Assembly: GCA_001774395.1 (NCBI GenBank)
Contig: MEZX01000002.1
Span: 96,753 to 160,752 of the forward strand
Reading direction: 5' to 3'
Length of the DNA: 64,000 nt
DNA from: Candidatus Berkelbacteria bacterium RIFCSPLOWO2_01_FULL_50_28
Lineage (GTDB): Bacteria > Patescibacteriota > UBA1384 > 2-12-FULL-50-11
A program made the position numbers and the translations under genes. Position 1 is the stretch's first letter; every line of letters begins with the position of its first letter. The notes beneath the pieces were generated by a model. That model was not told the DNA's origin and ran no database searches. It worked only from the letters and a program-made list of their open reading frames with translations. Positions 3-28,340 of this stretch are shown piece after piece.

Positions 3-965
3 GGGGTTCGACAGGCTGCGGGAAAAGCCGCCCAACAAGCAGCTAAGGCGGCTACTCGGGCGGCTATGGCTGCGGCAAGAGCAGTCGGAGCGCTTATCTC
101 GTCCGGCCCGGTTGGATGGATAATTCTCGCCATCCTGATCATTATTATTCTGGTTTTTATTCTCATAGCGATCCCATCGTTTAGCGGCATATTTGGTGGC
201 GGGCCTGGATCTTACCCAACCACCCAGGTCCAGAAAGAGCAGGCAACACTACTGGCGGCGCTAGCCGGTGATCGTATCTCGAAAAACGAAGTTGTTTTAG
301 AAGTGGTTAAGGATGAGAAAGAGCGCTACGGCCGCATCGAGTCCAACGCCACAAAATATGACCCTAGCTTGAGTGCTTCCATCACGGCCAAGAAAGTTGA
401 ATTTAGCAAGCTACTCGATTCGATGATGGCCGAAACTAATCTCGACCGCAAAAAGGCCGCCGTCAAAGACATTCAGGCGAAAATGATCTTGTTTGAAAAC
501 ACCCTGCCGTTTGGGAGATGGATTTTTAGCATCGCCAGCGCCAGTGTCGATCAGCCAAGCGGCAATTTTTGTCGAGTGACAAAGGTTGCCGGCACCCTAG
601 CCTGCGCCTCATTCGTCTCAACTGTTTTGTCTGACGCCGGCGTACCCAACTCGATCGTTGCTACTACTGAAGCCGTTTGGGAGATCGCCGGGTTGCGAAC
701 GGTCGTGAACCGCCCAGACACCAAAAGCGACTCGCTGTTCGATAAAAGCAAAGGGGCTTTACGTCCAGGGGACATTATCTGGTGGGGCGATGGGAACTGT
801 AGCTCGGTCAAACGAGCCACCAAAATATTTGATCACGTCGGTTTTTACATTGGAGACGGCATGTCGATTGATAATAGTTCCGAATTGGAGAAAGTGGCAA
901 AACGCCATGTAACCGGCCGTGATTGTTGGGCATTTAACGGAGCCAAGAGATATGGTAGCGACTAA
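3..965 (+). CDS. Membrane-anchored NlpC/P60-family cysteine peptidase (5' partial; frame is open to the window edge)
   Basis: Ala-rich region, TM helix (GWIILAILIIIILV), then C-terminal LACASFVSTVL ... LRPGDIIWW ... DHVGFYIGDG motifs (catalytic Cys/His of NlpC/P60). Confidence 0.75.
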   Translation, partial: GVRQAAGKAAQQAAKAATRAAMAAARAVGALISSGPVGWIILAILIIIILVFILIAIPSFSGIFGGGPGSYPTTQVQKEQATLLAALAGDRISKNEVVLEVVKDEKERYGRIESNATKYDPSLSASITAKKVEFSKLLDSMMAETNLDRKKAAVKDIQAKMILFENTLPFGRWIFSIASASVDQPSGNFCRVTKVAGTLACASFVSTVLSDAGVPNSIVATTEAVWEIAGLRTVVNRPDTKSDSLFDKSKGALRPGDIIWWGDGNCSSVKRATKIFDHVGFYIGDGMSIDNSSELEKVAKRHVTGRDCWAFNGAKRYGSD

Positions 966-14388: not shown

Positions 14389-14507
14389 CACTTCGAGTCG
14401 CTGGGCTCCCTCAGTGTAAACTGAGGACAGGCGACCCGAACTACCCCGAGCGACCTGTCCTGAGCGGATTCGAAGGAAGTCGGGGGCGGTACATTACAGT
14501 CACATTT

Positions 14508-14528
14508 GCGCCCGTAGCTCAGTGGATA
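14508..14528 (+). repeat. Exact copy of the first 21 nt of tRNA-Arg(GCG)
   Basis: GCGCCCGTAGCTCAGTGGATA identical to 14599-14619. Confidence 0.95.
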
Positions 14529-14598
14529 CTCCCGAGTCATCCTTTGAGCTACTGGCACCAGCCAGTATTAGATGCCTACAGTTATGTATGTAGGCTTG

Positions 14599-14671
14599 GC
14601 GCCCGTAGCTCAGTGGATAGAGTATTTGCTTGCGGAGCAAAGGGTCGCTGGTTCGAGTCCAGCCGGGCGCG
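14599..14671 (+). tRNA. tRNA-Arg(GCG)
   Basis: GCGCCCG/CGGGCGC acceptor, TTTGC-TTGCGGA-GCAAA anticodon arm, GCTGG-TTCGAGT-CCAGC T arm. Confidence 0.93.
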
Positions 14672-14861
14672 CAGATACTAAAAGTCCGAACCGCATTTAT
14701 TCACTTTTCTCGAAGAAAATCGCTACTCTAAGCTTTTGGGAATCACGCAGATTAATAATCGCGTCGCACAATTAATTTTTTTGAACCTGTAATGGTTCGA
14801 TTCCGGTTAGGTCGTTGTACGGGAAAACACTATTGACTGCCACTGTGATTTCTTATAGAAT

Positions 14862-15347
14862 ATGCGCATAACTGCGACAACCTCGCAGGGGAGGCAGAGA
14901 TTGAAGTATCTCCTTTTCGCCCTTTTCGCCGTCTGTCTGATCGGCTGTGCCGATCCGATCCAAGAAGCAGTGGAACAAGACAACCGTGAGTTCCAGATAC
15001 GAGACACTCAAAGAACTCGGGAATCGACCCAGATGCCGATCGCTCGATCCGCCAGCAACTACGTCTCCAAGACGATCAACGATAAACTGCTCCTTCTCGG
15101 AGAGGACGAGTGGCTGATCGTGGAAGTCCACATGCCAACCGCGGAGAATCGAATCTTCGTCCTCAGCAAAATTGACCCAGAAAGCAAGGTCCGTATAACT
15201 GAGGTTGTCGAATTCAAGGAGAAGGATTACGGCTGGGGAACCGGAATGATTGCTTGGGTCGGCGATATTGTCAGAAAAGCTCCTGTTTTACCCAATGATT
15301 TGATGGGGACAAATAGGAGCATGCCGAAGTGTGGCTACACTTTCTGA
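14862..15347 (+). CDS. Hypothetical lipoprotein
   Basis: Hydrophobic stretch ending in LIGC lipobox; TTGACT-17-TAGAAT promoter just upstream (true start may be slightly downstream). Confidence 0.55.
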   Translation: MRITATTSQGRQRLKYLLFALFAVCLIGCADPIQEAVEQDNREFQIRDTQRTRESTQMPIARSASNYVSKTINDKLLLLGEDEWLIVEVHMPTAENRIFVLSKIDPESKVRITEVVEFKEKDYGWGTGMIAWVGDIVRKAPVLPNDLMGTNRSMPKCGYTF

Positions 15348-15396
15348 CCTGGTGAATCGATTTGTCATCAGTGATCCACGTGGCGCCAACACGAAA

Positions 15397-15428
15397 CCGT
15401 CGGAGAGATCTCTCCGACGGCTACTTTT
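15397..15428 (+). terminator. Perfect 24-bp palindrome with T-tract
   Basis: CCGTCGGAGAGATCTCTCCGACGG-ctactttttt. Confidence 0.65.
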
Positions 15429-15576
15429 TATCTTCATAAGCGTTCCCACCCTCAATTTAAGGAAGGGAGCGAAACTCTCGAAAAAGAATTAGGAAGAATC
15501 GAAGCTCAGAAGAAGAAATAGGATTGTCTTCAGCGTGGTTCGGACTTTCGTGTGCCGGCGCGCAAGAGTTTAGGTT

Positions 15577-16254
15577 TTAGCCGTGGGCAATGGTGATGGC
15601 CCAGACGGTTTTGGCGCCTTTGCGGCGCAGGAGTATTGCCGCTTCCCCCAGGGTGGCGCCGGTGGTGATGACGTCGTCAACGAGAAGAATATTTTCTGGA
15701 ATCTCTTTCGTTCCGACGTAAGCGAAACATCCGTGCACGTTGGTGAGGCGCTTGGTTTTTGTTAGTTTCGCTTGGGCAGGAGTGTCATTTTTGCGCTTCA
15801 ACAGGTTGGAAACTTCCTCACGGCCGGCAAACATTCTTTGTGACAGAACCTCGCTCTGGTTAAACCCACGCTTGGCTAAGCGTTTTTGATGAATTGGGAT
15901 CGGCACGACCGTCCATTCCGAATGCGGCAGGCGTCGCAGATAATGCCGTCGAAAAGTATCAGCGTAAAAACTCAAGGCGTCAAAATGTCCGCCGTACTTG
16001 GCTTGCTGAACCAGGTCTTGAATTACCGGCTCGGCGTAGGAAAAAAGACTAACTACCCCGTCAAGCGGTACTCGCTCTTGGCACTTGGGGCAGATGCCAT
16101 TATCGGCCGCCTTATCACAGATGACACAGCTTTCGGGACGGCTCGCGGTCAGTTCTCTGCGACAATCGTCACAGATCCAGCCGCTCTCTTGGCCACAGCC
16201 GAGGCAGTTAACGGGGGCAACGAGGTTTTTCAAAGCATTTCCTAGCTCGGTCAT
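15577..16254 (-). CDS. comF: ComF-family competence protein (Zn-ribbon + phosphoribosyltransferase fold)
   Basis: CxxC repeats, RGFNQS, ILLVDDVITTGATL; start placed at MTELG. Confidence 0.9.
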   Translation of the reverse strand: MTELGNALKNLVAPVNCLGCGQESGWICDDCRRELTASRPESCVICDKAADNGICPKCQERVPLDGVVSLFSYAEPVIQDLVQQAKYGGHFDALSFYADTFRRHYLRRLPHSEWTVVPIPIHQKRLAKRGFNQSEVLSQRMFAGREEVSNLLKRKNDTPAQAKLTKTKRLTNVHGCFAYVGTKEIPENILLVDDVITTGATLGEAAILLRRKGAKTVWAITIAHG

Positions 16255-16307
16255 TGTCAACATTATGGCTTGACTGACCATATCATAACTCGCATAATAA
16301 ACGCACT

Positions 16308-16685
16308 ATGGCTAAGAAAGAAGAAATTCAGGAGGAGTGGGTTGACGAAGAAGAAGAGGGTCAGCTCGCCATCGACGCCTATCAAGACGAAGACAATATC
16401 TACATCAAGGCGCCGATTGCCGGAGTGAGCGTGGAAGATCTAGAGATTTCAATTACCGACGAAGTGGTGACGATTAAGGGCACGCGACGCAACGAAGGAG
16501 ATTTGGCGCGCGAGAGTTACTTTGTTCAAGAGTGCTACTGGGGTTCGTTTATGCGCTCCTACATTCTGCCAGTATCGGTTGATGCGGCCAAGGCCGACGC
16601 CAGTTTGCGTAACGGCATTCTAACGATTCGCATTCCGAAACAAGAGAAGACCAAGACGAGAGTTCTTAAAGTTCAAGTAGATTAA
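16308..16685 (+). CDS. Hsp20/alpha-crystallin small heat shock protein
   Basis: ECYWGSFMRS..LP, ASLRNGILTIRIPK. Confidence 0.93.
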   Translation: MAKKEEIQEEWVDEEEEGQLAIDAYQDEDNIYIKAPIAGVSVEDLEISITDEVVTIKGTRRNEGDLARESYFVQECYWGSFMRSYILPVSVDAAKADASLRNGILTIRIPKQEKTKTRVLKVQVD

Positions 16686-17063
16686 CGGCGAGGCCGTAGG
16701 GGCTTTATTACCCAGGAAACCGGGGGTTTTTTCGTGGGGGTGAACGAATATTATTCATACTACCTCTAAAGACGCAATTTTTTGCGAGGGTGAGGGGCTC
16801 GGAGTTGCGAAGGCCGCCCCTACACCCTCGCGCTCCCTACCCCGCCACGCTTCTCACAGAGGTATGGAGAAAAAGCTTCGGGGGTTCGCGACGAGCGTCG
16901 CTCCACCGTCCCGGCTAAACCACTCGCTTTTTCGGGCTATCAATATTCTGAAACCGGCGGCACGGACCTGCGCCTGCGTACTCTTGCCGGTTTTCGGTTA
17001 TGAATATAAAAATCGCCCGGGAAGCGTGGAAGCTTCTTCGGGCATTGGCGGTGGTCGGAGCGG

Positions 17064-17996
17064 TCAGCCACCAAATCGAGTGGTAGTCACGCGGTAGCAG
17101 TCGATCAGCTCCCGTTTTCGATCCTCGGCGGGGACATTCAGTTCGATGCAGCGCATCCCGACAACAAGTAGGTGTTGGGCAACCACCGGGTTGAGAACCT
17201 TGTGGCCAGCCTGTTTTGTTCCGAGTATTAGATCGAGCTCGTCAAGATGGCCCTTGGTTAGGACCCGGTACGCCTCGCTCCAATCGACGATCTTCGATTC
17301 GGCAAGAAGGCGGTCTAGGGTCTTATAGTAGGCGCCGTCAGCCAGACGGTTGAGAATCTGCGACTCGACGGTATGAGCTCGCACTTCCTCATAAACCCAC
17401 TCGTCCAACTCCTTGCTTGCGACTGACCCCAGCGCGTTACGCTGGTGCTGCAGGGCGTGAGATAGTTCGTGCCCAAGCAGCGAGGTGAACACTGCCGGTG
17501 GCCAATCGACCGCGGCAACGAAAACCACCTTACGGCTAGCGTCGTACCAGACGGCTGCGGGGTGAAGAGGTCCGTCCTCCTTTGGATAAAAGACGATCAG
17601 CACCTTTCCCCCGGGATAACTCAAGTCGTCCGAACTGATACCAACGCCCATCTTGGAGCTGATGACAACGCCGACGTTGAACTTCGAGAACGCCTTCGCG
17701 ATCTCTTTGGTCTCGTCCGTTGTCGGGCCAAGACGGTTGAGCGCCTCAGTGATGTTGCGGCGCAACGGGTCGGTCAGCTTCTTGTTAGCCTGACTCTCCG
17801 GCACCTGACGCTCCAGCCACCAGGCGCTTTCGTTGTGACTCGCCATATACGCCCTGATCTCTGACTGGATCTGTGCGAAGTTGGCGGGTGGTTGGGGCGC
17901 CGCAAATGAAGGCGGTGACTTCACGGCGACGGGCTTGTTACCCGAGCAGCCGTAAAGACCGAGAACAAAAATGAAAAGAGCGATGAGATACCTCAT
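17064..17996 (-). CDS. Lipoprotein, putative zinc metalloprotease
   Basis: LYGC lipobox; GHELSHALQ (HEXXH) and downstream EEVRAH; GAGGAGGA RBS. Confidence 0.7.
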   Translation of the reverse strand: MRYLIALFIFVLGLYGCSGNKPVAVKSPPSFAAPQPPANFAQIQSEIRAYMASHNESAWWLERQVPESQANKKLTDPLRRNITEALNRLGPTTDETKEIAKAFSKFNVGVVISSKMGVGISSDDLSYPGGKVLIVFYPKEDGPLHPAAVWYDASRKVVFVAAVDWPPAVFTSLLGHELSHALQHQRNALGSVASKELDEWVYEEVRAHTVESQILNRLADGAYYKTLDRLLAESKIVDWSEAYRVLTKGHLDELDLILGTKQAGHKVLNPVVAQHLLVVGMRCIELNVPAEDRKRELIDCYRVTTTRFGG

Positions 17997-18036
17997 GCGT
18001 ATTCCTCCTCTGCGGTCGAGCCGCAGTTATGCGGAA

Positions 18037-18065
18037 ATTCTACCCTAGATAACCGAGAAAGTCAA
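18037..18065 (-). promoter_or_regulatory. Sigma70-type promoter of the HEXXH lipoprotein
   Basis: Minus strand TTGACT-ttctcggttatctaggg(17)-TAGAAT. Confidence 0.75.
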
Positions 18066-18321
18066 TGGGAACGAGCTATTTTCTCCAAAAGTGCTCTAGG
18101 TTTCCGTATGTGTTAAAACACATACGGTGGCTTAGGGAATTCGGTATTTTAATAACCAAAAAGTGAGCGTTTTAGTCGGCTATCAATACCGAAGGCAGAG
18201 AGTTTGAACAGTGACACTTCCGGTTCAAACCTTGAGGCTTTCACCCCCCCCTAAGTTGGGAGGAGATGTTTTCCGAGGGGCGTCGCGGACGACGAGGCAT
18301 CTAACCACCTCCCTTTCCCAT

Positions 18322-18466
18322 GGTGCGAGAAGTTATCCTTGCGACCGTGCGGAGGGCGAAGCGGGCATGGTTTCCTGAGCTTGTCGAAGGAAGAGCGAGC
18401 CCGAGCCCGAAACCCAAATTCTCGCTGGGAATTTGGAGTTGGGTCGAAAGGGTAACTTGTCGCACC
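18322..18466. repeat. MITE/REP-like element with 25-bp imperfect terminal inverted repeats
   Basis: GGTGCGAGAAGTTATCCTTGCGACC (18322-18346) vs reverse complement of GGTCGAAAGGGTAACTTGTCGCACC (18442-18466), 3 mismatches; nested hairpins inside. Confidence 0.7.
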
Positions 18467-18520
18467 GCTCTCTCCCCAACTTGAATAAAAACTCTATTTG
18501 CGAGACGCTGAAGTCAACAA

Positions 18521-19885
18521 ATGAAGAGGGGGCTGATAATTCTTGCTGGTTTGGGTGTACTCCTGATACTCGTCGTGGTATTTATGAACATTTTTGGCGG
18601 CAAGACGCCTGACAGCAAGTCGGCACTCAAGGTATGGCTGCCCTTCGACGAAGTAGCGACTTATAAAAAAATCTCTAAGGAGTTTCAGGCTAAGCATTCC
18701 AGCATCGATCTGGAGTTTAGATACATTGACGCCAAAGACGCCAAGGACTACGAGGCAACGGTTATCAATGCTATTGCTGATGGTGAGGGCCCAGACATCT
18801 GGTTGGCACGGTTCGATTGGATACCCAAGCACGCCGCCAAGTCTCTACCGGCCTCATCGGGCGGTCTTACTGATGCGGTAACCCAGCTCAAAGTTCTGGT
18901 TCAATCTAATATCGTCGACTTGAACACTTACAACGGCGAGCTCTACGGCGTGCCGCTGTTTGCCGATTCGCTGGCGATAATCTACAACAGCGATTTTTAC
19001 CGTGAAAACAGTCAGAACTTTTCCCAGAAAAATCTAGCTTTCCTCGATCAGTACCCGAAAAGTTGGGCTGAGCTGAAGCGCAATGTTGGTCTAATCAGTT
19101 CCAACAGCGGCGCGACGATAAAGCGTTCAGGCTTAGCGATGGGAACAGTGAAAAATACACTTGCTCCCGCCGACGTTCTGACGGCCTTTTTGCTCCAGTC
19201 CAACTCGACGATTTTAAGCGAAGACGGCAAAGACGTGATATTCAATCTGGCGGCTTTCAAGAAAGGTAAACCAACATTCCCCACCGCTGAGGCGCTGTCG
19301 TTTTATACGAGCTTTGCCTCGCCAAAGGCGACTAACTATTCTTGGAACGCCGCAATGGGCGACCCAGTTGAGGCGTTCGTGGCCGGTAAGACGGGAGCCC
19401 TCATCGGTTACTACTCAACACTACAAGCAATACTTGATCAAGATCCGACTATCTGGCAAAAAATCATTGTAACTCCCATGGTTCAGAAAAATCCCAAGGC
19501 CGAGCGTATCGACTTCGTGATGGGCTGGACGCATTTAGTCAATCGCGACAGCACTGCTCCTGAGGCGGCCTGGCAGTACTTGAGTTATCTGGCGCAAGAC
19601 ACGGCGCAGTACGACTATGCAGAATCAACCGGTAGAATTGAAGTAGCCAAGCGCGATCGGGGCCTGGCGGAGCGCTCCGAGGCTAATATGTCGCGAGATG
19701 AGATATTTGGCGCTCAATTTGATACGGGTCAGTTGTTTATCAAACGGGAGTGGCAGTTGGTAGACGTTGTTCTGCAAGACGCCATTAACCAAGTGATTGT
19801 GAGCCATCGCACAGCCCAGAACGCCATCGATTCAGCCGCCAGCCGTTTCAAGGTTTTTCTGCAGGACGCTAGCGTGGGGCAGTAG
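18521..19885 (+). CDS. Extracellular solute-binding protein (SBP_bac_1/8-like), membrane anchored
   Basis: N-terminal TM, LKVW, AIADGEGPDIW, GELYGVPL..DSLAIIYN, AWQYLSYL. Confidence 0.85.
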   Translation: MKRGLIILAGLGVLLILVVVFMNIFGGKTPDSKSALKVWLPFDEVATYKKISKEFQAKHSSIDLEFRYIDAKDAKDYEATVINAIADGEGPDIWLARFDWIPKHAAKSLPASSGGLTDAVTQLKVLVQSNIVDLNTYNGELYGVPLFADSLAIIYNSDFYRENSQNFSQKNLAFLDQYPKSWAELKRNVGLISSNSGATIKRSGLAMGTVKNTLAPADVLTAFLLQSNSTILSEDGKDVIFNLAAFKKGKPTFPTAEALSFYTSFASPKATNYSWNAAMGDPVEAFVAGKTGALIGYYSTLQAILDQDPTIWQKIIVTPMVQKNPKAERIDFVMGWTHLVNRDSTAPEAAWQYLSYLAQDTAQYDYAESTGRIEVAKRDRGLAERSEANMSRDEIFGAQFDTGQLFIKREWQLVDVVLQDAINQVIVSHRTAQNAIDSAASRFKVFLQDASVGQ

Positions 19886-19887
19886 AG

Positions 19888-20163
19888 ATGCTGTTACCTA
19901 TCGAGAGAGCGCTAGCTCAAGGAGGTCCCGCAACCACTGGCTCGAGTTTTAGCGATTATCTGTCAGTGCAAATCGGCCGGGCGATCACCCTGGCTGGGCT
20001 CTTGGCGGTGTTGATGATAGTTTACGGCACGTTCCGCTACGCCACTTCGGGCGGTGACGACACTAAAACCAAAGAAGCGAAAGACATAATCTTGGGTGCG
20101 GTTGTTGGATTTTCCTTGTTAGTTTTAATAAAGATCCTCGTGCCGCTGTTGGGGCTGGAATGA
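19888..20163 (+). CDS. VirB2/TrbC-like (T4SS-type) pilin
   Basis: Two TM helices joined by YATSGGDDTKTKEAKDIILGAVVG. Confidence 0.8.
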   Translation: MLLPIERALAQGGPATTGSSFSDYLSVQIGRAITLAGLLAVLMIVYGTFRYATSGGDDTKTKEAKDIILGAVVGFSLLVLIKILVPLLGLE

Positions 20164-21242
20164 CGAAACTTGTTAAGCTCTTTTTCGGGTTGGCTTTCAG
20201 TCTGACACTGGTATTTTATGCTGGCGGGGTTGCCTTAGCGGACAGTAAACTGGTTGGCTTTTCTCCAAATCCGCTTGAATTTGCCACCGACTCAGCCAAC
20301 AAAGAGATAGTGACAGCCACCGTTTCGCCCGCACCGGCCTCGGCGCTGACGGTTAAATTAGTTGCTAATGGTAAGGTGACCCTTGGCAAGACGACGCTCT
20401 CTTTTAGCCCCACTGACACTACTGACACGTTCGGCGTTACCCCGGCTTCGGGGCTCAAGAGCGGCGACATCGTCATAATAACCGCCGAGGGGAAAATTGG
20501 CGCAGTAACTTACAAGGGAACGCTCGAGGCCGCGATCGGCGTGGTGGCACACCCTAACCCCAACGCTGGGAAAATAGATTGGAATAAAGTTCCCGGCACG
20601 ACCATCACCGATCTGAATGTTTTCCTGAACAAAGCGATAACTGGCGCTCTTTGGGTGATCGCTCTGGTGGCTTTTGCCGGATTAATCGCCGCCGGATTCA
20701 TGTATATAACCGCTGGCGGAGACGCGGCCAAGGCGGAGAAAGCCCGCAAGACGATTATCTGGTCGATTGTCGGGGTGATTCTGGCCTCAATTTCCTACAC
20801 GTTACTTCTGACCGCGGCGCAATTTAGGGGCATCGATTACACTGCAATTCCCCAAGAAACAAGCGATAGCGGCTCGACCGCGGATGACGGTTCTGCAACG
20901 ACAGGTTCGGGAGTCGGATTGACGGTTAGCGACACAGCGGGTACAAATTTTGCCGATGTTATTCCTCTCGACCAAACAACCCAGCTTTCATATCCGCTCG
21001 AGATTGTATTGAATAGTGCCCCAGCCGGTACGGTCACTGTCGAACTAATAACACAGGGTAATTTGCCGCTCACCCTTGCCGGTAGCAGTACGATGACGTT
21101 TGACGAAACCAGTTGGTCAACGCCGCAATCTTTTGGTGTTTCCTATGCTGGTGACGGTCAACCAGGTCAAGCGGGGCAGGTTCTGATCAAAGGCTCGGAC
21201 GGCTCTCGCCAGACAATTCGATTCGAGGTGCCAAATGTTTAG
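20160..21242 (+). CDS. Pilin-domain protein flanked by two Ig/Calx-beta-like domains
   Basis: Signal peptide; central GFMYITAGGDAAKAEKARKTIIWSIVG pilin motif; beta-rich domains on both sides. Confidence 0.75.
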   Translation: MTKLVKLFFGLAFSLTLVFYAGGVALADSKLVGFSPNPLEFATDSANKEIVTATVSPAPASALTVKLVANGKVTLGKTTLSFSPTDTTDTFGVTPASGLKSGDIVIITAEGKIGAVTYKGTLEAAIGVVAHPNPNAGKIDWNKVPGTTITDLNVFLNKAITGALWVIALVAFAGLIAAGFMYITAGGDAAKAEKARKTIIWSIVGVILASISYTLLLTAAQFRGIDYTAIPQETSDSGSTADDGSATTGSGVGLTVSDTAGTNFADVIPLDQTTQLSYPLEIVLNSAPAGTVTVELITQGNLPLTLAGSSTMTFDETSWSTPQSFGVSYAGDGQPGQAGQVLIKGSDGSRQTIRFEVPNV

Positions 21243-22815
21243 TCGTCTTGCTCTTGGAGCAAAGCGCTACCTATTCGTGGCTATGTTGACTCTCTTGAGT
21301 CTGGCTCCGGCTTTGAGCTTTCCTGCCCCCGCTAGGGCCGCCGACCCGTTTCCGGTAGACTTTAGCCGCGTTGAGGTTAACAGCCAAAAGCAGGCCCAGT
21401 ACCGGGCGGACATTTTCCAAATTTATTCAGATCTAAAGAGCCAGATTGGCAGTCTGGGCAAATCGCGTGTTATCAAGGCGTTTGTGTTCTATCCGTGGGA
21501 TGTTCAAAAGATAAGCCCCAGTACCCAGGATGGATTTACGGCGGGCTACTTCCAACCGAGCACCGGTTATCTTGTGATAAATTCCGTCGAATTCGAAGAG
21601 ACTGAGAGCGTGAGAACCGTAATTGCTCACGAGCTACTCCATTCATTCGTTCCCGCAAACAACGGCTACGGATACAGCGGGGCGGGAGGCAAGGGCTACG
21701 TTTACGAGGAGATGCTGGCGGACTATTTCTCGAAACTCCACATTGGCGCGAGCCTGGGCGAAACCTACGCTGGTGCCGTAGCATCGCTTGGCTACTCTCA
21801 CCTGGCCAACCTCGTACCCCAAATACTAAACATCATCGGTTTAGCTGGGCAGAGTGATCCGGAAACAATACTGGAACGGGCTATATTTAGCAGCTCCAAG
21901 CTTGGGCTGATCGACCAAACTGTCGGCAAATACCTCACGGACAAAAACTTTTTGGCTAATCTCGGCGGCTTTCTCGACACAAGCCCCGCAAAAACCAATC
22001 TCACAGCGGCCAAGAAGTACCTCGACGAGGTAGAGAGAAAAATTCTTGCCACCAGCGCTAAATCGAGCTCTGTCCAGGTGCTGGTGAAGGGCCAGTTTAG
22101 CGCCGATTACGCCGACGTACTGACGATTCCGGAGAACGTGGAGGGTTTGTCGATTCCTCTGGAAGTTGCGTTGAGCGCCGCCCCTAGCAGCCCAGTTACG
22201 CTGACAGTGGCCGGGCGTGGGGCTCTGGTACTAACTTACACCGGTAGCGCTGATTTGGTCTTTGATTCAACTAATTTTGCCGACAGTAAATCTTTCAGAG
22301 TTTTCTACGACAAGGCGGCCAACAAGGAGGGGACGAGAGCAGAGATTAGTTTCTCTGGCCCCGGAGTGGATACAAAGACCGTGACGGTCGTCAAAGCCAG
22401 CGAGTTGAAAAGCGGCCCTGCCGGTGGGACGACCGGCGGAACTGGCGGCACGGCGGGTGGCACCACGGCGGCTGCTTCAGGAGTCGGCCCGTTTCTGGGC
22501 AAGCTCCTCCTGCCAGACTGTCTGCGCACCGGAGAAAAGGCTGTTAACGCCGAATTCGACACTTGCGTGCTCGACAGCGTGCGCCATTACATCGAGCTGT
22601 TACTTTTGCTGACGGCGTTAGGGGCGTTCGGTTATTTGCTTTACGGTGCCTTCTTATACGCTTCGGCCTTTGGCGATGAAGCGAAGGCGACGTTGGCCAA
22701 AAAGGTAATCACCGCGGCGCTAATCGGTGCGGCGCTCTCCACTCTGGCCTACTTGGCGATAATGTTACTGGCTCAAGGTCTCGGCGTCGAGGGCGGTCTA
22801 CTCCGAACGCCTTGA
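21235..22815 (+). CDS. HEXXH metalloprotease + Ig-like domain + C-terminal pilin domain
   Basis: Signal peptide; VIAHELLHSF ... YEEMLADY; C-terminal LYGAFLYASAFGDEAKATLAKKVITAALIG. Confidence 0.72.
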   Translation: MFSRLALGAKRYLFVAMLTLLSLAPALSFPAPARAADPFPVDFSRVEVNSQKQAQYRADIFQIYSDLKSQIGSLGKSRVIKAFVFYPWDVQKISPSTQDGFTAGYFQPSTGYLVINSVEFEETESVRTVIAHELLHSFVPANNGYGYSGAGGKGYVYEEMLADYFSKLHIGASLGETYAGAVASLGYSHLANLVPQILNIIGLAGQSDPETILERAIFSSSKLGLIDQTVGKYLTDKNFLANLGGFLDTSPAKTNLTAAKKYLDEVERKILATSAKSSSVQVLVKGQFSADYADVLTIPENVEGLSIPLEVALSAAPSSPVTLTVAGRGALVLTYTGSADLVFDSTNFADSKSFRVFYDKAANKEGTRAEISFSGPGVDTKTVTVVKASELKSGPAGGTTGGTGGTAGGTTAAASGVGPFLGKLLLPDCLRTGEKAVNAEFDTCVLDSVRHYIELLLLLTALGAFGYLLYGAFLYASAFGDEAKATLAKKVITAALIGAALSTLAYLAIMLLAQGLGVEGGLLRTP

Positions 22816-22873
22816 AGGAAATCTTGACAACGGTCAGACGATAGTTTGTAGTGATAATATAAGGGAGGAAGAG

Positions 22874-23215
22874 ATGAATTTATTAAGTAAGTTTGTAGGA
22901 GTGGCGCACGCGGAGACACAGTTTCGGGTAGATAACTTCAAGCTGTTCGATATGTTCAAGCCGAACAACGCCGAACAAGGTCTAAGCCAAATCATTACCA
23001 AGATTGTTGGATTTGCCATGCTGATTGCGGCACTGATCGCTTTCGGGTATCTGATAGTGGCTGGCTTCCAATATATGACAGCCGGCGGAGACGCTGCCAA
23101 AGCCCAAACAGCTCGTCAGGGAATTGTTAACGCCTTGGTTGGTATTATTATTGTCGTTATTGCTTACACCCTGCTTGCCTACGTCTCCTCTGTTACAAGA
23201 CGCGGTAATTTCTAA
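22874..23215 (+). CDS. VirB2/TrbC-like pilin, probable major pilin
   Basis: GFQYMTAGGDAAKAQTARQGIVNALVG; own TTGACA element and GGAGGA RBS. Confidence 0.85.
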   Translation: MNLLSKFVGVAHAETQFRVDNFKLFDMFKPNNAEQGLSQIITKIVGFAMLIAALIAFGYLIVAGFQYMTAGGDAAKAQTARQGIVNALVGIIIVVIAYTLLAYVSSVTRRGNF

Positions 23216-23219
23216 ACGA

Positions 23220-24728
23220 CTAAGCAACCGAACGAACTTCTTCCTCGGTAGTTAGGCCTTGGGCAGCTTTTTCTAAGCCATCATCAAGAAGGGTTCTGTT
23301 GCCGAGTTTTTTAAACATCTCCTCGAATTCCGAGAGCGAAGCCTCTCTTTTGATTAGCTCGATTGTCTGGGCATCTGGCACAAAATGCTCGACGATTAGA
23401 AATCGGCCACGAAAGCCGGTCTGATAACAAACATCACAGCCCGTACCGCCGCAAGCGGCGCAAACCCGTCGGACCAATCTTTGGGCCACAACCAAGCTAA
23501 TGGCGTCGGCCAACAGATACTTCGGGACGCCAATCTGTAGCAGTCGGGCAAACGAAGCAGCGGCAGAGTTGGTGTGAAGCGTCGAAAGCACCAAATGCCC
23601 CGTCAGTGCCGCATCAATAGCGATTTGGGCGGTCTCAACGTCCCGAATCTCGCCTACCATAATGACGTTCGGGTCTTGGCGTAAAACGGCCCGCAGGGCT
23701 TGAGGAAAATCAAAGCCGTCAGCAGGGTTCACTTGCACTTGCTCGATACCTTCGATGCGATACTCCACCGGGTCTTCGATAGTAACTATCTTCGAATCGG
23801 GTTTGTTCAGAAGCTGGAGCACGGCGTACAAGCTCGTTGTTTTGCCCGAGCCAGTTGGGCCGGTGAAAAGCACTAAGCCCTCTGGTCGTGAGACGGCGTC
23901 AAGGATTGCTTTCTGGGTGTCGGGCGAGACGTTAAGCTGGTCGAGCGAGAGAAAATTCTTAAATGTCAGCAGGCGCAGTTCGATGGTTTCGCCGTAAGCC
24001 GTCGGAACGGCGTTAACGCGAATATCAATGTGCTGCTCGCCGACTGTAAAGGTGAAACGGCCGTCTTGGGCGACTTTTTTGACGTCTAATTTTATGTGCG
24101 ACAGGGTTTTGATACGGGACGCCAGCAGGTGGTAGGTTTTCTCAGGCAAGTCGATCACCTCGACCAACTTGCCGTCAATGCGAAACCTAATCGCCACAGC
24201 GGTCTCCCCTGGTTCGAAGTGAACATCGGTCGCGTCGAGCGAAAGCCCCCCGGAAAGAATTGTTTCCAGTAGTTCGGTGGTTGAAACTTTATCGATCGCG
24301 TCCTTCAAATCTTTCAGGGTGCTGATTCTGACGGCGAACTGCTCTTTGGTTTGAGCCTTAGCGGGCCCGGTAACGGCCGCAACCAGCTCGTCGTAGCGCG
24401 TTAAACTATACTCGGCAGAACTTTTTGAGCAAATAAACGGCTGGAAAGTTAGGGACAGCTTCGCTCCCAATTCGCCCATTGCCTCGGCTAAGCCTTGGGC
24501 AAACGGGTTGGGGCTGGCAACGCGAACGTTGTGGCCGATTTTCATAAACGAGACAATCCTGAACCGCTCCGCAACATCTCGGGGAATGATGGCGATAACT
24601 TCACCCACAAACGGAAAGTTCACCAAATTAACGTAAGGCAGCTCTCTGGAGGCGGCAAACTCTGACGTGTGAGCTTCCTCGCGAGCCCTGTCGTACGAGT
24701 GAACAACGTTGCGTAAATCTTGGGTCAT
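23220..24728 (-). CDS. GspE/PilB-family pilus assembly ATPase
   Basis: MshEN-like N-domain, ATDVHFEP, AQDGRF, GPTGSGKTT, TIEDPVEY, LRQDPNVIMVGEIRD, TGHLVLSTLHTN. Confidence 0.93.
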   Translation of the reverse strand: MTQDLRNVVHSYDRAREEAHTSEFAASRELPYVNLVNFPFVGEVIAIIPRDVAERFRIVSFMKIGHNVRVASPNPFAQGLAEAMGELGAKLSLTFQPFICSKSSAEYSLTRYDELVAAVTGPAKAQTKEQFAVRISTLKDLKDAIDKVSTTELLETILSGGLSLDATDVHFEPGETAVAIRFRIDGKLVEVIDLPEKTYHLLASRIKTLSHIKLDVKKVAQDGRFTFTVGEQHIDIRVNAVPTAYGETIELRLLTFKNFLSLDQLNVSPDTQKAILDAVSRPEGLVLFTGPTGSGKTTSLYAVLQLLNKPDSKIVTIEDPVEYRIEGIEQVQVNPADGFDFPQALRAVLRQDPNVIMVGEIRDVETAQIAIDAALTGHLVLSTLHTNSAAASFARLLQIGVPKYLLADAISLVVAQRLVRRVCAACGGTGCDVCYQTGFRGRFLIVEHFVPDAQTIELIKREASLSEFEEMFKKLGNRTLLDDGLEKAAQGLTTEEEVRSVA

Positions 24729-24788
24729 TTAACTTATTGTAGCCGACTAGCTGATAGCGACCAACAGGAAGCTTTCTGTCGCGTGCGA

Positions 24789-24817
24789 CTGACTTTTGAG
24801 TGATAATGAGGTAAGAT
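24789..24817 (+). promoter_or_regulatory. Promoter upstream of the tRNA-Ser(CGA) repeat array
   Basis: CTGACT-17 nt-TAAGAT. Confidence 0.55.
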
Positions 24818-24831
24818 TTAGGTCGTTATCA

Positions 24832-24981
24832 GGAGAGGTCGCATAGCTCGGTTGATGTGAGGCCGCAGGCCGAAGACAACCGGGATGGAAACTTGGAGAG
24901 GTCGCATAGCTCGGTTGATTTTGAGCCAGAGGCGAGAAACAACCGGAGTACAAATCGGAGAGGTCGCATAGCTCGGTTGAT
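24832..24981 (+). repeat. Three copies of the 25-nt tRNA-Ser(CGA) 5' end separated by 38- and 37-nt spacers
   Basis: GGAGAGGTCGCATAGCTCGGTTGAT at 24832, 24895 and 24957 (third copy is the tRNA itself). Confidence 0.95.
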
Positions 24982-25043
24982 TGCGCCGGTTTCGAAAACC
25001 GGTATACCGCAAGGTATCGTGGGTTCAAATCCCACCCTCTCCG
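24957..25043 (+). tRNA. tRNA-Ser(CGA)
   Basis: GGAGAGG/CCTCTCC acceptor, CCGGT-TTCGAAA-ACCGG anticodon arm, long variable arm, TTCAAAT T-loop. Confidence 0.95.
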
Positions 25044-25045
25044 CA

Positions 25046-25399
25046 ATGGATGTAGATAAATGCTACAGCGATTGGATTAAGTTGATCGCTGAGTCGAACG
25101 ACAGTGACGAGCTGGTCACCCACTTTAGAGAACATGTCGGTGATCACTTTCACCATCATGACAACGAAGGTGAATTCGGTTTTAAAATATGGCTGACAGG
25201 GGTGGTCAACTTCCTTCGTGTATTTGAGCAGAAATTTACGGAAATAGAAAAAGCCGAACTACTTTTCCAGCTCTGTGTTTTCTACAAAGAAAAAGGTAAG
25301 GGCCCTAAACCGTCGTTCGATATTGATGTTTTTATGGAGAATTTTGATAGCAAAATAAAAGATTATTATCTTAAACGTAAATCAGCTAACAGAGACTAA
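25046..25399 (+). CDS. Hypothetical protein (117 aa), AT-richer than flanks
   Basis: ATG two nt after the tRNA discriminator; MDVDKCYSDWIKLIAES... Confidence 0.55.
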   Translation: MDVDKCYSDWIKLIAESNDSDELVTHFREHVGDHFHHHDNEGEFGFKIWLTGVVNFLRVFEQKFTEIEKAELLFQLCVFYKEKGKGPKPSFDIDVFMENFDSKIKDYYLKRKSANRD

Positions 25400-25474
25400 G
25401 AGATAAGCGTTCGCCATCTATCCAATTGCTCTGGACCGGAACGTCCTACACTAGGAAAAGCCCCTCAGGGTTCG

Positions 25475-26335
25475 CTACTTACTCTGGCTCGTTTTTACGG
25501 CCAAATAGAACGCCGTTGACTCGAGGATATGATCAGATTTGGTTAGCTTGAGAATCAGCGAGATGAAACTCTTGGCCAATCTTGATAGCGGGCTCCGCTC
25601 CGCTATGGTGGTCGAGGTGATCTTTTTTACCTGGAACCCGCCGTACTTTAACTGCTCTTTCACCTGGCCCACTGAATACTCCGTAACGTGGTAACTCGAC
25701 ATAAATCCGACGCCCTTTCCACGGGCGATTCTTGCTAAATTGCTGAAACGATAGCGACTGGGGGTGGAGATAATTAGCAGTCCGCCTGGCTTGAGGACTC
25801 TACTTATGGCTTTGAGCATCGCTAGCGGATCTGGTACGTGCTCCCAGATGTTGTTGCAAATGGCAATATCTAGCGACTCGTCTTTGAACGGCAGCTGGTG
25901 CGCGTCAGCTACAAAGAAAGTAACGCCTTTGTATTTTTTATGTGCGTAGTCGATGGCCGAAGTCGAGTAGTCGAGTCCCAGAACCTCCATCTTGGGGAAA
26001 TGTTTTTTAATTTCGGCTGTAATGTGGCCTTCGCCGCAGGCAATGTCCAAAAGCTTCAGACCCTTTCCCTGTACGCCCTTTAGCAAGTCCAGTGTGCAGT
26101 TGAAGCGGCGCCGGTGGAAATTGCTTGTCATATGATCACTTACCGCATAGGGATCCTCTGTGGCGTACTCGTCTGAGCCTACCAACTCGTCGGGATGAAG
26201 GAAAACGAGAAACTTATTAGGGTGCCAACTGCACGAGTATTTTTTATAGCCGCCCTTTTTCCATTCTTCCAGCGAGCAGGAGTCCTGCCCTAAGTTTATT
26301 GCTCTGCTTTTCGCTTCATCAAAGTATTCAATCAT
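25475..26335 (-). CDS. Class I SAM-dependent methyltransferase
   Basis: LLDIACGEG, GLDYS, DAHQLPF, EHVPDP, RVLKPGG. Confidence 0.9.
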   Translation of the reverse strand: MIEYFDEAKSRAINLGQDSCSLEEWKKGGYKKYSCSWHPNKFLVFLHPDELVGSDEYATEDPYAVSDHMTSNFHRRRFNCTLDLLKGVQGKGLKLLDIACGEGHITAEIKKHFPKMEVLGLDYSTSAIDYAHKKYKGVTFFVADAHQLPFKDESLDIAICNNIWEHVPDPLAMLKAISRVLKPGGLLIISTPSRYRFSNLARIARGKGVGFMSSYHVTEYSVGQVKEQLKYGGFQVKKITSTTIAERSPLSRLAKSFISLILKLTKSDHILESTAFYLAVKTSQSK

Positions 26336-26431
26336 GAGTGCTTCCTCGATTATTGTTGGCCAGCAACGCTTAGCTTACTTTTATCACAATAAGCCCTACA
26401 GAGACACCCTGCCAAGCTCCGTTCTCTGTTT

Positions 26432-26612
26432 AACGCAAAAAGCCGACTGCGAAGAAGCGGCTTTTTAACGCAAAAAGCCGATTGTGAAACAACGGTTTTT
26501 TGTGACGCAAAAAGCCGATCACGAGGACCGGCATTTACGTTGTTACCTAAAGACAATGTCGGTAGGCAACAACTAAAAAAGACGAACAGAATGTCGTCTT
26601 TTTTAGTTGTTG
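26432..26612. repeat. Tandem hairpin array
   Basis: ACGCAAAAAGCCGA at 26433, 26468, 26505, each closing a hairpin; then two more hairpins including a perfect 19-bp inverted repeat 26567-26612. Confidence 0.85.
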
Positions 26613-26839
26613 ATCTAAAGTGCAAATGACCCTTGCGGATCTTACCCAGTATCAATCTCGACGGTAAGAATGTCAAGGCGGCCGGTATTTAGAAACGTAT
26701 GCTATATATAGCATACGGGAGCTTAGGTAGCTAAAAGTAAAAAATGTAGTTCCCCAATGTGTTAGCACCGGGGTAAAGAAATACCCCCGCTCCACTAGGA
26801 AACGGGGGTTGACGGACGAGCCGTCGAAATCGGAAGGGG

Positions 26840-27550
26840 TTAGCGCTTCTTGGACTTCTCCAAGTCGCGCGGGTCGGTGCCGGTCATCGCCTTGGTGAGG
26901 CGACAGAAGGCATCGTCAAGCTCGCGGGAGACGTTGTCTCCGCTATCTTGCGAGAAGCCGACTCGGCCTAGGTCGACCGAGAGGCCCTTTCTGCCGGTGT
27001 CTGCACCGAGGACATCGAAGATGCCGTTGTCGGCGCTCGAGAAGCCATCGGGGTCGGCAATCTCCACCGAAATTTCGGCAAAGTCCTTCTCCGAATAGGC
27101 AGATGCAAAGATCCCCTGAAAGAGGTTTTGCAGCCGACCCTGCATATCTTGGAATCCCCTGTATTGGGTCGCCGAAACATGCACAACTGAGCACCCTGCA
27201 ACGTCGGGTTTCTCGCCTCTTTCAAGCAGGCGTCCGAGTCGGAGGTCACGACCCCAGTACTTCGCCTGGGTCTTGACCTTCTTGATGATCAGATCGTCGC
27301 TGTAGCCGCTGTTGTTGTCGTCGACCATGAAATACAGTCTGGAACCCGTCGGCAGCACGACTCGGCCCGTGTTGGCGTTGAGCTTGTCGTTAGCGCGGTT
27401 TAGGTCGCCATCGAGGCGACTATCGACCGCCTGGGCGACCAACGAGTTGGCCGCCTCGCCTACCAAGTTGGCGGCGAGGTCACGAAGCGACTGCGCCGGC
27501 GCAAGCGCCGACGCGATGACGAAAGTTAATCCGATAATCGTTTTCTTCAT
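26840..27550 (-). CDS. Secreted hypothetical protein
   Basis: Signal peptide MKKTIIGLTFVIASALAPA; own promoter and downstream hairpin 26783-26809. Confidence 0.7.
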   Translation of the reverse strand: MKKTIIGLTFVIASALAPAQSLRDLAANLVGEAANSLVAQAVDSRLDGDLNRANDKLNANTGRVVLPTGSRLYFMVDDNNSGYSDDLIIKKVKTQAKYWGRDLRLGRLLERGEKPDVAGCSVVHVSATQYRGFQDMQGRLQNLFQGIFASAYSEKDFAEISVEIADPDGFSSADNGIFDVLGADTGRKGLSVDLGRVGFSQDSGDNVSRELDDAFCRLTKAMTGTDPRDLEKSKKR

Positions 27551-27619
27551 TTCCTTAGTTCCTTAACGATTTCGAGTGCGCCCTTCCGGGCGTTTTACCA
27601 CCCGAAAGTTTCTGGGGCC

Positions 27620-27648
27620 ACTTTACCAGATAAACCGAGAAATGTCAA
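27620..27648 (-). promoter_or_regulatory. Sigma70-type promoter
   Basis: Minus strand TTGACA-tttctcggtttatctgg(17)-TAAAGT. Confidence 0.75.
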
Positions 27649-27777
27649 GGGATTCGGGTGTAATTATTGACCACGGATAGTTTAGCTCTCGTATATATTA
27701 TAATATATGAGGGAGCTAGATCATGAGTGACCGAGAACACTGTATATGGTATAATTCTTTAGATTCACCTGTGTGAA

Positions 27778-27797
27778 ATGGAGAGGTCGCATAGTGG
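27778..27797 (+). repeat. Copy of the tRNA-Ser(GCT) 5' end
   Basis: ATGGAGAGGTCGCATAGTGG identical to 27909-27928. Confidence 0.92.
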
Positions 27798-27910
27798 GCC
27801 GGAAGCGAGGGAACGCAGCTTTCGGCGGGAAATGAAAGATTTCCCCGGCGGCCACGTATGCCCAGTTTTTTGCTCGAGGACGATAGGCCGAGCTAGAATG
27901 TTGAAAACAT

Positions 27911-27997
27911 GGAGAGGTCGCATAGTGGCCGAGTGCAGCTCACTGCTAATGAGTTGAACCCGTAAGGGTTCCCAGGGTTCGAATCCCTGCCTCTCCG
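27911..27997 (+). tRNA. tRNA-Ser(GCT)
   Basis: GGAGAGG/CCTCTCC acceptor, GCTCA-CTGCTAA-TGAGT anticodon arm, long variable arm, TTCGAAT T-loop. Confidence 0.95.
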
Positions 27998-28061
27998 CCG
28001 TCGCCTCGCTGAAGCTCGGCTTTGGCGGACAAGTCCGCTAAGCTGGGCGTAAGCGGGACAA

Positions 28062-28301
28062 ATGAAATATGTATATCTACTGAAGTGCTCTGACAAGCGC
28101 ACGTATATCGGCTGTACCGGCGATTTGAAAAGTCGACTCGACAGGCACATGAAGGGGCATGTGCCCGCAACTAAACCAAGACGGCCAGTGACTTTGGTTG
28201 GATATTTTGCCCTTGTAAGCGAGGTAAGGGCGTTCGAGTTTGGGAAGTATCTAAAGACTGGTTCCGGCCGGGCGTTCTTGAGCAAACGAGTTCTGGGTTG
28301 A
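28062..28301 (+). CDS. Small GIY-YIG nuclease-family protein (UPF0213-like)
   Basis: YVYLL..TYIGCTGDLKSRLDRH..G...TKPRRP ... KYLKTGSGR. Confidence 0.9.
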   Translation: MKYVYLLKCSDKRTYIGCTGDLKSRLDRHMKGHVPATKPRRPVTLVGYFALVSEVRAFEFGKYLKTGSGRAFLSKRVLG

Positions 28302-28340
28302 GTCCCAGCCTCTTGCTCGTTTTTTTGCTAGACTGAAGCT

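Follow-up and report, generated by a model that had tools for sequence, protein, structure and literature searches.

The described systems closest to the elements reported here include the tRNA-linked repeats (TLRs) of Escherichia coli, which are short non-coding tandem units of mostly unknown origin and function that lie beside tRNA and rRNA genes, each closing with 18-19 bp that exactly match the end of the neighboring gene (PMC8144298). Tyrosine-integrase att duplications also restore an intact tRNA; known bacterial sites lie in the anticodon loop, the T loop and the 3' end, and pTN3-like archaeal integrases use the 5' half (PMC8371274, PMC9897764; Williams 2002 as cited there). REP/REPIN and CGTC repeats are tiny gene-less imperfect hairpins thought to move as single-stranded DNA (ssDNA), and the CGTC repeats have no known transposase (PMC3733652). 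SegB of T4 and T6 is a free-standing GIY-YIG homing endonuclease, encoded among tRNA genes, that cuts a tRNA T-arm motif in DNA and drives homing and segmental tRNA-gene amplification (PMC2330249, PMC13096335). Here we describe compact units that precede tRNA genes in a 64,000-nucleotide stretch of DNA (the window) from Candidatus Berkelbacteria bacterium RIFCSPLOWO2_01_FULL_50_28, which corresponds to C2:96753-160752 of a three-contig, 850-kb genome that is 93% complete and occurs in groundwater and soil metagenomes. Each unit begins with a copy of the 5' end of the tRNA gene that follows it, and also carries a fold-back that can pair with this copy. We consider it about an even bet (probability near 0.5) that the units represent several families of miniature, gene-less mobile hairpin elements that target tRNA genes.

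The window units resemble each of the known systems only in part. Downstream of tRNA genes in the same genome, we find mirror-image units that fit the description of TLRs, including the copied 3' end. TLRs copy the 3' end and lie downstream, whereas the copy in a window unit is of the 5' end, the unit is placed between the promoter and the gene, and its fold-back matches the target; the accessible portion of PMC8144298 links TLRs to no nuclease. Tyrosine-integrase islands carry kilobases of cargo plus an integrase, whereas the units here span 25-170 bp, lack an integrase and break in the D-arm. No integrase lies between the copies of the window units (62-131 bp), and the crossover falls outside the known sites. 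The original prediction from the sequence of the window had likewise noted the absence of an integrase, and none is present among the 28 window open reading frames (ORFs) scanned; the sole tyrosine recombinase of the genome is located at C2:199201, approximately 38 kb past the window. REP, REPIN and CGTC repeats share the tiny, gene-less, imperfect hairpin form, but our units have neither a GTAG nor a CGTC tag, occur as a single copy per family per site, and are accompanied by a 13-26 nt target duplication. No body of a window unit is multi-copy, and the one Y1 transposase gene of this genome (RAYT-like, C2:589389-589634) is flanked on both sides by the same short palindrome, which differs from the units. 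A Y1/RAYT transposase was rejected as the mobilizer because it does not co-occur with units (a Y1 match is found in 9 of 22 relatives and is missing from 13). As with SegB, a GIY-YIG gene is found beside tRNA genes here, but SegB is a phage enzyme with a 27-bp site, whereas the proteins here are chromosomal, comprise approximately 80-95 aa with the catalytic domain only, and are nested in duplicated tRNA ends with hairpin modules. The window nuclease has neither a DNA-binding extension nor an intact active site (79 aa, Glu to Gly). Full-text searches of the openly available literature gave no account of fold-back units at tRNA 5' ends, nor of small GIY-YIG cassettes embedded in tRNA genes, and GIY-YIG is not mentioned in the accessible portion of PMC9297842. 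The units are real and widespread, and apparently undescribed in print.

The window holds four tRNA genes and no other structured RNA (ARAGORN; Rfam 15 at gathering score). All of its units, on the forward strand, follow one layout in which the tRNA 5'-end copy is succeeded by a module, a fold-back, a spacer and the intact tRNA gene. At tRNA-Arg(GCG), a 91-bp unit opens with an exact copy of tRNA nucleotides 1-21 (14508..14528) that breaks after the D-loop GGAT. Its hairpin module (14529..14538) is of the ACTCC..GTC type, the reverse complement of which (GAC..GGAGT|AT) is found at 3' units. The fold-back (14539..14556) is an imperfect complement of tRNA nucleotides 3-20 and pairs with 14510-14527, although 14550-14556 may alternatively pair with 14561-14567, forming a helix common to the Arg units of relatives. 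A terminal hairpin (14574..14595), also present in relatives' Arg(TCG), Arg(CCG) and Arg(TCT) units, precedes the intact gene (14599..14672). Two units stand in tandem before tRNA-Ser(CGA) (24957..25044). Unit 1 (24832..24894, 63 bp) comprises a 25-nt copy (24832-24856), a GA-flanked mini-hairpin (24857-24876), a fold-back to the D-loop (24877-24884, pairing with 24847-24854) and a spacer, while unit 2 (24895..24956, 62 bp) comprises a 26-nt copy (24895-24920), a diverged module of the same family, a fold-back (24940-24949, pairing with 24909-24917) and a spacer. The 131-bp unit of tRNA-Ser(GCT) begins with an exact copy of nucleotides 1-18 (27780..27797) that breaks at the D-loop GG. Two covarying hairpins of a long family (27798..27845) are followed by a target-matched fold-back (27852..27861, pairing with 27789-27797) to tRNA nucleotides 10-18, by the T-run, third hairpin and tail of this family (27866..27910), and then by the intact gene (27911..27999). 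Folding z-scores are -4.7 for the Arg unit, -2.0 and -2.8 for the Ser(CGA) units and -1.5 for the Ser(GCT) unit, and so the last is not by itself energetically unusual.

These data confirm the exact 5'-end copies that had been predicted at 14508, 24832/24895 and 27780, as well as the unit lengths of 91, 63/62 and 131 bp, except that the second Ser(CGA) copy is 26 nt long and the copies therefore span 18-26 nt. Complementarity of the fold-back to the D-arm had also been proposed. This holds for Arg, where the acceptor 5' strand and the D-arm are both matched, but at the two Ser genes the match is chiefly to the D-loop. The -10-like hexamer claimed for each locus is good at Ser(GCT), where an extended -10 box (TG-TATAAT, 27750..27755) lies 24 nt before the fragment, fair at Ser(CGA), where TAAGAT (24812..24817) lies 14 nt 5' of the first fragment, and weak at Arg, where TACATT at 14490 stands 118 nt behind tRNA-Ser(TGA); the first two are consensus matches only. 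The inserts had been described as unrelated sequences. They instead belong to recurring families, of which three are seen in the window: a short AT-break family (Arg), a family with a 25-nt AT-break and a GA-flanked mini-hairpin (Ser CGA), and a long GG-break family (Ser GCT). The Ser(CGA)-type family, with two diverged copies in the window, is present also in a relative (G012). No second copy of any window unit body was found elsewhere in the genome, and at four other unit loci Rfam 15 had no credible match at E<=1. A CRISPR-like array at Ser(CGA) was rejected because there are only two units, and their spacers share homology and can pair with the repeat. Phage origin was also rejected, as two unit patterns had no match in viral contigs. 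As a separate observation, a GC-rich inverted repeat (14430-14495) lies between tRNA-Ser(TGA) and the Arg unit, with a second hairpin at 14395-14435.

The contention that such copies reflect a mechanism rather than chance was borne out by a scan of all tRNA genes in the genome. The first 14 nt recur within 300 nt upstream, at 0-1 mismatch, for 7 of 44 tRNA genes, compared to none of 44 downstream at up to 2 mismatches. Beyond the window, the genes with 5' copies are Leu(TAG), Leu(CAG), Gly(TCC) and Ile(GAT). A weaker case, Pro(TGG) with 2 mismatches in 13, brings the total in this genome to 8 of 44, and the pattern is also seen in relatives. The mirror form, a 3'-end copy downstream with up to 2 mismatches, occurs at 7 of the 44. 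An assembly artefact is ruled out by separately assembled contigs from public runs, which span every window unit with zero differences (Arg, X4 and X8; both Ser(CGA) units, X1 and X6; Ser(GCT), X1 and X4), where X1 may be the source itself, X4 and X6 come from the study of X1, and X8 comes from another. This settles the check on spanning evidence that the original prediction had proposed. No strain polymorphism was counted in the public runs, where the only candidate was a weak joint in one contig that bypasses the Ser(GCT) unit with a side of 24 nt.

The pattern extends well beyond this genome. The Ser-unit pattern matches at least 120 loci in the species collection, and among the matches listed, 73 have a Ser fragment of 30 nt or less, the rest being tandem whole genes, unrelated repeats or unscored. 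Record titles among the listed matches include Berkelbacteria, Daviesbacteria, Levybacteria, Uhrbacteria, Peribacteria, Moranbacteria, Gracilibacteria and Saccharibacteria, and many read 'uncultured Gammaproteobacteria', a label that is unchecked. Four Bacillaceae records (L059, L065, L083, L088) matched through a repeat with a 104-bp period at which no tRNA was called. Among 291 unselected tRNA loci, 39 have a 5' unit and 53 a 3' unit. For the analysis of anatomy, 543 distinct tRNA loci yielded 164 5' units and 96 3' units. The 5' fragment starts at +1 or a few bases earlier (131 of 164 reach 0-2 nt into the leader), lacks mismatches in 126 of 164 units, and ends at positions 13-26 in 159 of 164, with preferred ends at 13-14 (Ser, Gly), 16 (Leu), 18 (D-loop GG), 20-21 (Arg) and 25-26 (Ser CGA). 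Breakpoints are thus fixed, falling after an AT or at the D-loop GG. The fragments of 3' units start at 56-61 and show no 7-nt loop overlap. Breaks after AT number 109 of 147, a figure inflated by the Ser pattern; in the unselected set, units occur in 25 of 100 genes with an AT at positions 11-22 versus 14 of 191 without one.

Fold-backs follow their targets: in 123 of 156 units the fold-back suits its own fragment more closely than it does other tRNA types on average. In the 37 units where the fragment has mutated, the tRNA is the better fit in 18 and the fragment in 9, with 10 ties. The fold-back matches the fragment letter in 18 of 25 columns when aligned to the fragment, but that alignment biases the count, and the 37-unit comparison, with the opposite outcome, is the fairer one. 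The long family offers a clear structural case, as 7 of 16 pairs in its two hairpins are altered on both sides among six sequences, the same six from which the structure was derived. When 151 genomes were searched with a model of this family, 7 of them gave 9 strong matches, each at the D-loop GG of a tRNA (Ser CGA, GCT, GGA; Cys GCA), three of them outside the model-building set and one at tRNA-Cys; a tenth, weak match (E 0.001) lies away from any tRNA. Near-identical bodies in one relative (G009) stand at Ser(CGA) and Ser(GCT) with different fold-backs, each suiting its own gene. In the window, the tRNA-Ser(GCT) D-arm is of the Ser(GGA/CGA) type, unlike that of the 13 other Ser(GCT) genes examined in the order, and relative to an 84% identical unit (G003) the fold-back differs in step with the D-arm. 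Sequence comparison suggests that this D-arm and fold-back may be a co-conversion tract from another Ser gene.

Alignments of orthologous loci, which had been suggested as a check, revealed both presence/absence differences and covarying fragment/fold-back pairs. The Ser(CGA) site is occupied in 10 of 14 family genomes and empty in 4, with breakpoints at 13/14, 18 and 25/26, and unrelated modules occur at one and the same tRNA site. The Leu(TAG) unit is 44/45 identical to those of G010 and G002, two genomes of another genus, and the promoter side of these loci aligns at background (54-55/110), yet the unit is missing from a third relative (G017), although identity on the promoter side there reaches 91/110. 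The unit therefore has a history separate from that of its flanks. Units align at 75-92% between genera in which neighboring proteins are 45-56% identical, and the Leu(TAG) unit is better conserved than its tRNA (73/84). As with miniature non-autonomous elements, empty and filled alleles with a target duplication are found, and one element occupies several sites. The proposal that miniature elements insert in the D-arm is supported by empty sites, by varied inserts per site, by one family at several tRNA types and by nuclease-bearing units of like layout, but with several families rather than the single one envisaged, and with a mirror form at the T-loop.

A possible mobilizer is suggested by the window itself. 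Immediately past tRNA-Ser(GCT), hairpins (28000..28061) lead to a 79-codon single-domain GIY-YIG gene (28062..28301; UPF0213, bacterial Slx1-like). Its stop codon falls within a degenerate copy (28293..28312) of the T-arm and acceptor 3' strand of tRNA-Ser. Slx1 is a structure-specific nuclease, and the Glu of the GIY-YIG domain is catalytic. The window protein, on a long branch, has Gly61 where Glu is kept in 108 of 111 aligned proteins, and so is predicted to be inactive. Its nearest solved relative is the UPF0213 structure 1zg2, which has been placed among stand-alone bacterial Slx1-like proteins (PMC1564403); TIGR01453 matched it over only 32 of 215 positions, far below the cut-off. To sample such genes, we took 109 loci, the best-scoring part of 235 PF01541 matches in 61 genomes of the class, and removed three long ORFs from 113 to leave 110 small GIY-YIG genes. 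Of these best-scoring matches, 61 are found no more than 350 nt from a tRNA gene and always on its strand (approximately 5% expected, by rough estimate), and 23 lie inside tRNA-end duplications, 18 with an upstream 5' fragment and 5 with a downstream 3' fragment. The 18 sit between the 5' fragment and the intact tRNA gene, with the stop codon inside the tRNA in 7, and two of the 5 end as gene-less units do, with fold-back, module and fragment. Five related nucleases (tree support 93/58, or 100/96 with a sixth) share a single D-loop module, located at Ile, Pro, Lys, Lys and Arg genes, which represent four tRNA types. Cassettes in which a nuclease gene accompanies duplicated tRNA ends thus exist and look mobile, and by comparison of their sequences they are linked to the gene-less units through layout, junction type and place rather than through sequence, in which there is little identity.

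Other GIY-YIG genes show further peculiarities. At six loci (L259, L271, L272, L274, L279, L281) the stop codon lies inside the downstream tRNA, and RNase P cleavage there would yield an mRNA without a stop codon, which may act as a brake on the nuclease; at L271 and L281, leftover D-loop bases help to make a new -10 box. In this genome, a small GIY-YIG gene (C2:366380-366640, L280) with long hairpins behind it interrupts the 16S rRNA gene at a stem close to the 5' end. Two near-identical GIY-YIG genes (C2:167182-167382 and C2:348605-348805) are boxed by inverted repeats with apparent 4-bp target duplications, an apparent nuclease element away from tRNAs that resembles miniature inverted-repeat transposable elements. 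Closely similar GIY-YIG genes (C1:42452-42673, L503, L521, L523) follow an apparent transfer-messenger RNA (tmRNA) 3' end, in three relatives as well, and a gene-less version of this hairpin leader stands behind tRNA-Arg(TCT) in this genome.

The two unit forms appear to be opposed in orientation. The motif GA[GA]CG.AG[CT]GA occurs 0 times in sense and 5 times in antisense in 162 5' units, versus 15 and 0 in 96 3' units, and GAGTAT occurs 2/8 and 9/0, respectively. Purines make up 45% of loop bases in 5' units and 69% in 3' units. A 4-mer mirror test beat shuffles, but a reversed-only control was close (0.0095 vs 0.0114), and so the mirror claim rests on the longer motifs. Stem mismatches in 5' units, scored in the 76 of 161 with a clear stem, favor the template strand: read in sense, C-T outnumbers G-A by 55 to 14, and G-T and A-C stand at 34 and 38 (nulls 1151:1687 and 1813:1057). 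DNA folding energies prefer the template strand in 104 of 158 5' units, whereas RNA energies are unbiased. The template-strand bias and the opposed motifs therefore point to an element that acts as ssDNA, with its polarity fixed towards the gene end.

In the mechanism that we favor, an element would enter a tRNA gene at a fixed point in the D-arm, duplicating the 5' end and leaving the intact gene after the unit. A small Slx1-like GIY-YIG nuclease, possibly of the kind found in like duplications and either acting in trans or formerly present, would nick the stem-loop formed by the single-stranded tRNA gene. Repair from an occupied allele or from a paralogous tRNA gene would then copy the unit in. 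Such homing-like copying would explain the concentration of units in the multi-gene Arg, Leu and Ser families, whose 5' ends are near-identical. Once in place, the unit would be transcribed as a leader in which the spare 5' end is caught by the fold-back ahead of synthesis of the real tRNA and so could not take the 3' acceptor strand of the tRNA. RNase P cuts at tRNA +1, and would thus remove the leader at the second +1. We propose that masking of the spare 5' end would keep the insert from doing harm and make its loss through point mutations difficult. Folding predictions are consistent with this role: real bodies are predicted to lower capture of the 3' acceptor strand relative to shuffled ones (0.68 versus 0.83 over 133 units; native fold 0.29 versus 0.11; 79 of 133 units). 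On this modeling, the fold-back is likely to be a safety catch that masks the spare 5' end rather than a switch, and it may possibly serve also as a recognition or guide element for insertion. A more ambitious version, which we consider distinctly unlikely, is that the fold-back is a rewritable guide, widespread in Patescibacteria, that pairs both with the tRNA copy of its own element and with the corresponding arm of a tRNA gene still empty, and so steers a single-domain GIY-YIG nuclease.

Several observations count against mobile elements of this kind. Movement of a unit was never observed. For the three window loci, equilibrium prediction gives the swapped fold (0.99-1.0) with or without the fold-back, and masking would therefore need kinetic trapping, with the leader hairpin forming first during transcription. 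An AT alone is insufficient for targeting, since genes with an AT in the D-arm carry units in 24 of 57 cases for Arg, Leu and Ser versus 1 of 43 for all others. In both Ser families of the window it is the sense strand that gives the better fold, and six sense G-U changes are seen in the long family, and the mirror rule is thus not general; stems of 3' units (24 scored) show no significant strand bias, and because the units are related by descent, p-values are overstated. The tie to the nuclease is also loose in several respects. Only 12 of 155 5' bodies match GIY-YIG gene flanks (5 of them the same places counted twice, and none of them the window's four), and only 2 of 86 3' bodies do so, which is not above the level of random DNA. 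The short fold-back form is absent from all 18 nuclease-bearing 5' units, most of which resemble dead tRNA copies with a module in a loop. The predicted co-occurrence of units with GIY-YIG genes is seen at the level of the locus but fails at that of the genome, as 11 of 22 genomes of the order, among them the single-contig G001 and the unit-rich G009 (5' units at 9 of 34 tRNAs), have only a GIY-YIG match of UvrC length; several of the 11 bear units.

That last result, together with the absence of a Y1 transposase from some unit-bearing genomes, would sit comfortably with selection by the host, in which units are leader RNAs from which RNase P frees an RNA with a tRNA-like start to serve as a decoy, a protein sponge or a processing control, forming a 5' counterpart of the E. 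coli repeats. Three TLRs are indeed transcribed and processed, and bind Hfq and CsrA (PMC8144298). The greater conservation of units than of neighboring proteins between genera, and of the Leu(TAG) unit than of its own tRNA, the strong bias to Arg, Leu and Ser, and the G-U pairs that the long family keeps on the transcribed strand all agree with a leader RNA. However, we find this explanation unlikely, given the patchy occurrence of units, unrelated modules at one site, a history uncoupled from the promoter, the same motifs inverted behind tRNA 3' ends, and the lack of any Rfam family over the window units or the other unit loci. The short family shows no G-U excess and its mismatches favor the template strand, and the anti-D-arm switch or decoy of the original prediction is not supported, though some units are strongly conserved across genera.

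Two further explanations dispense with a dedicated element. Dead partial tRNA duplicates, left by nuclease cassettes or slippage, might later have been colonized by generic hairpin repeats able to enter any stem-loop, with most of the pairing being leftover tRNA structure. This is true of some units: Ile(GAT) and Pro(TGG) here, and several units of relatives, resume native tRNA sequence past the module, module-free 5' halves occur at Ile(GAT), most nuclease-bearing 5' units take this form, and GA-rich mini-hairpins are scattered through the genome. As a general account it is doubtful, because the four window fold-backs pair with D-loop bases and positions 8-9, beyond native tRNA sequence, the strong matches to the long module in the 151 genomes lie only at tRNA D-loops, and no window body recurs in the genome. 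An enzyme-free origin, by snap-back synthesis and template switching at tRNA stems followed by decay, resembles tandem inversion duplication, which gives a direct copy, an inverted copy and a direct copy, an order that fits copy, fold-back and gene. The better fit of mutated-fragment fold-backs to the tRNA (18 of 37, versus 9 for the fragment) agrees with this origin. It is already weakened, and very improbable, in light of modules with compensatory changes common to several tRNA types and genera, the fixed breakpoints, and direct copies that are exact (126/164) while fold-backs are imperfect.

Several other features of the genome were recorded. Two stand-alone reverse transcriptases of 320-350 aa (C2:520651-521337 and C3:21363-21956), which from their motifs we take to be retron-like, lie beside no unit. 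A tRNA-Ile at C3:78489-78561 has a UAU anticodon instead of the usual lysidine-modified CAU, as is also the case in relatives. Within the window, a 1471-aa ORF without a Pfam match (919-5334) lies just before the recF-dnaN-dnaA region.

Given their frequency at unselected loci, the units are a routine and apparently undescribed component of tRNA loci, in genomes that are thought to retain almost no spare DNA. They also tie together TLRs of unknown origin, stand-alone GIY-YIG proteins of the Slx1-like kind whose role is unknown, and hairpin repeats orphaned of any transposase. The availability of both filled and empty alleles, along with intact nuclease cassettes, makes the mechanism directly testable in vitro. 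Should the fold-back indeed guide targeting, the units and their nuclease would constitute a very small programmable nuclease-insertion pair, programmed by base pairing and built on an 80-residue nuclease without a DNA-recognition domain.

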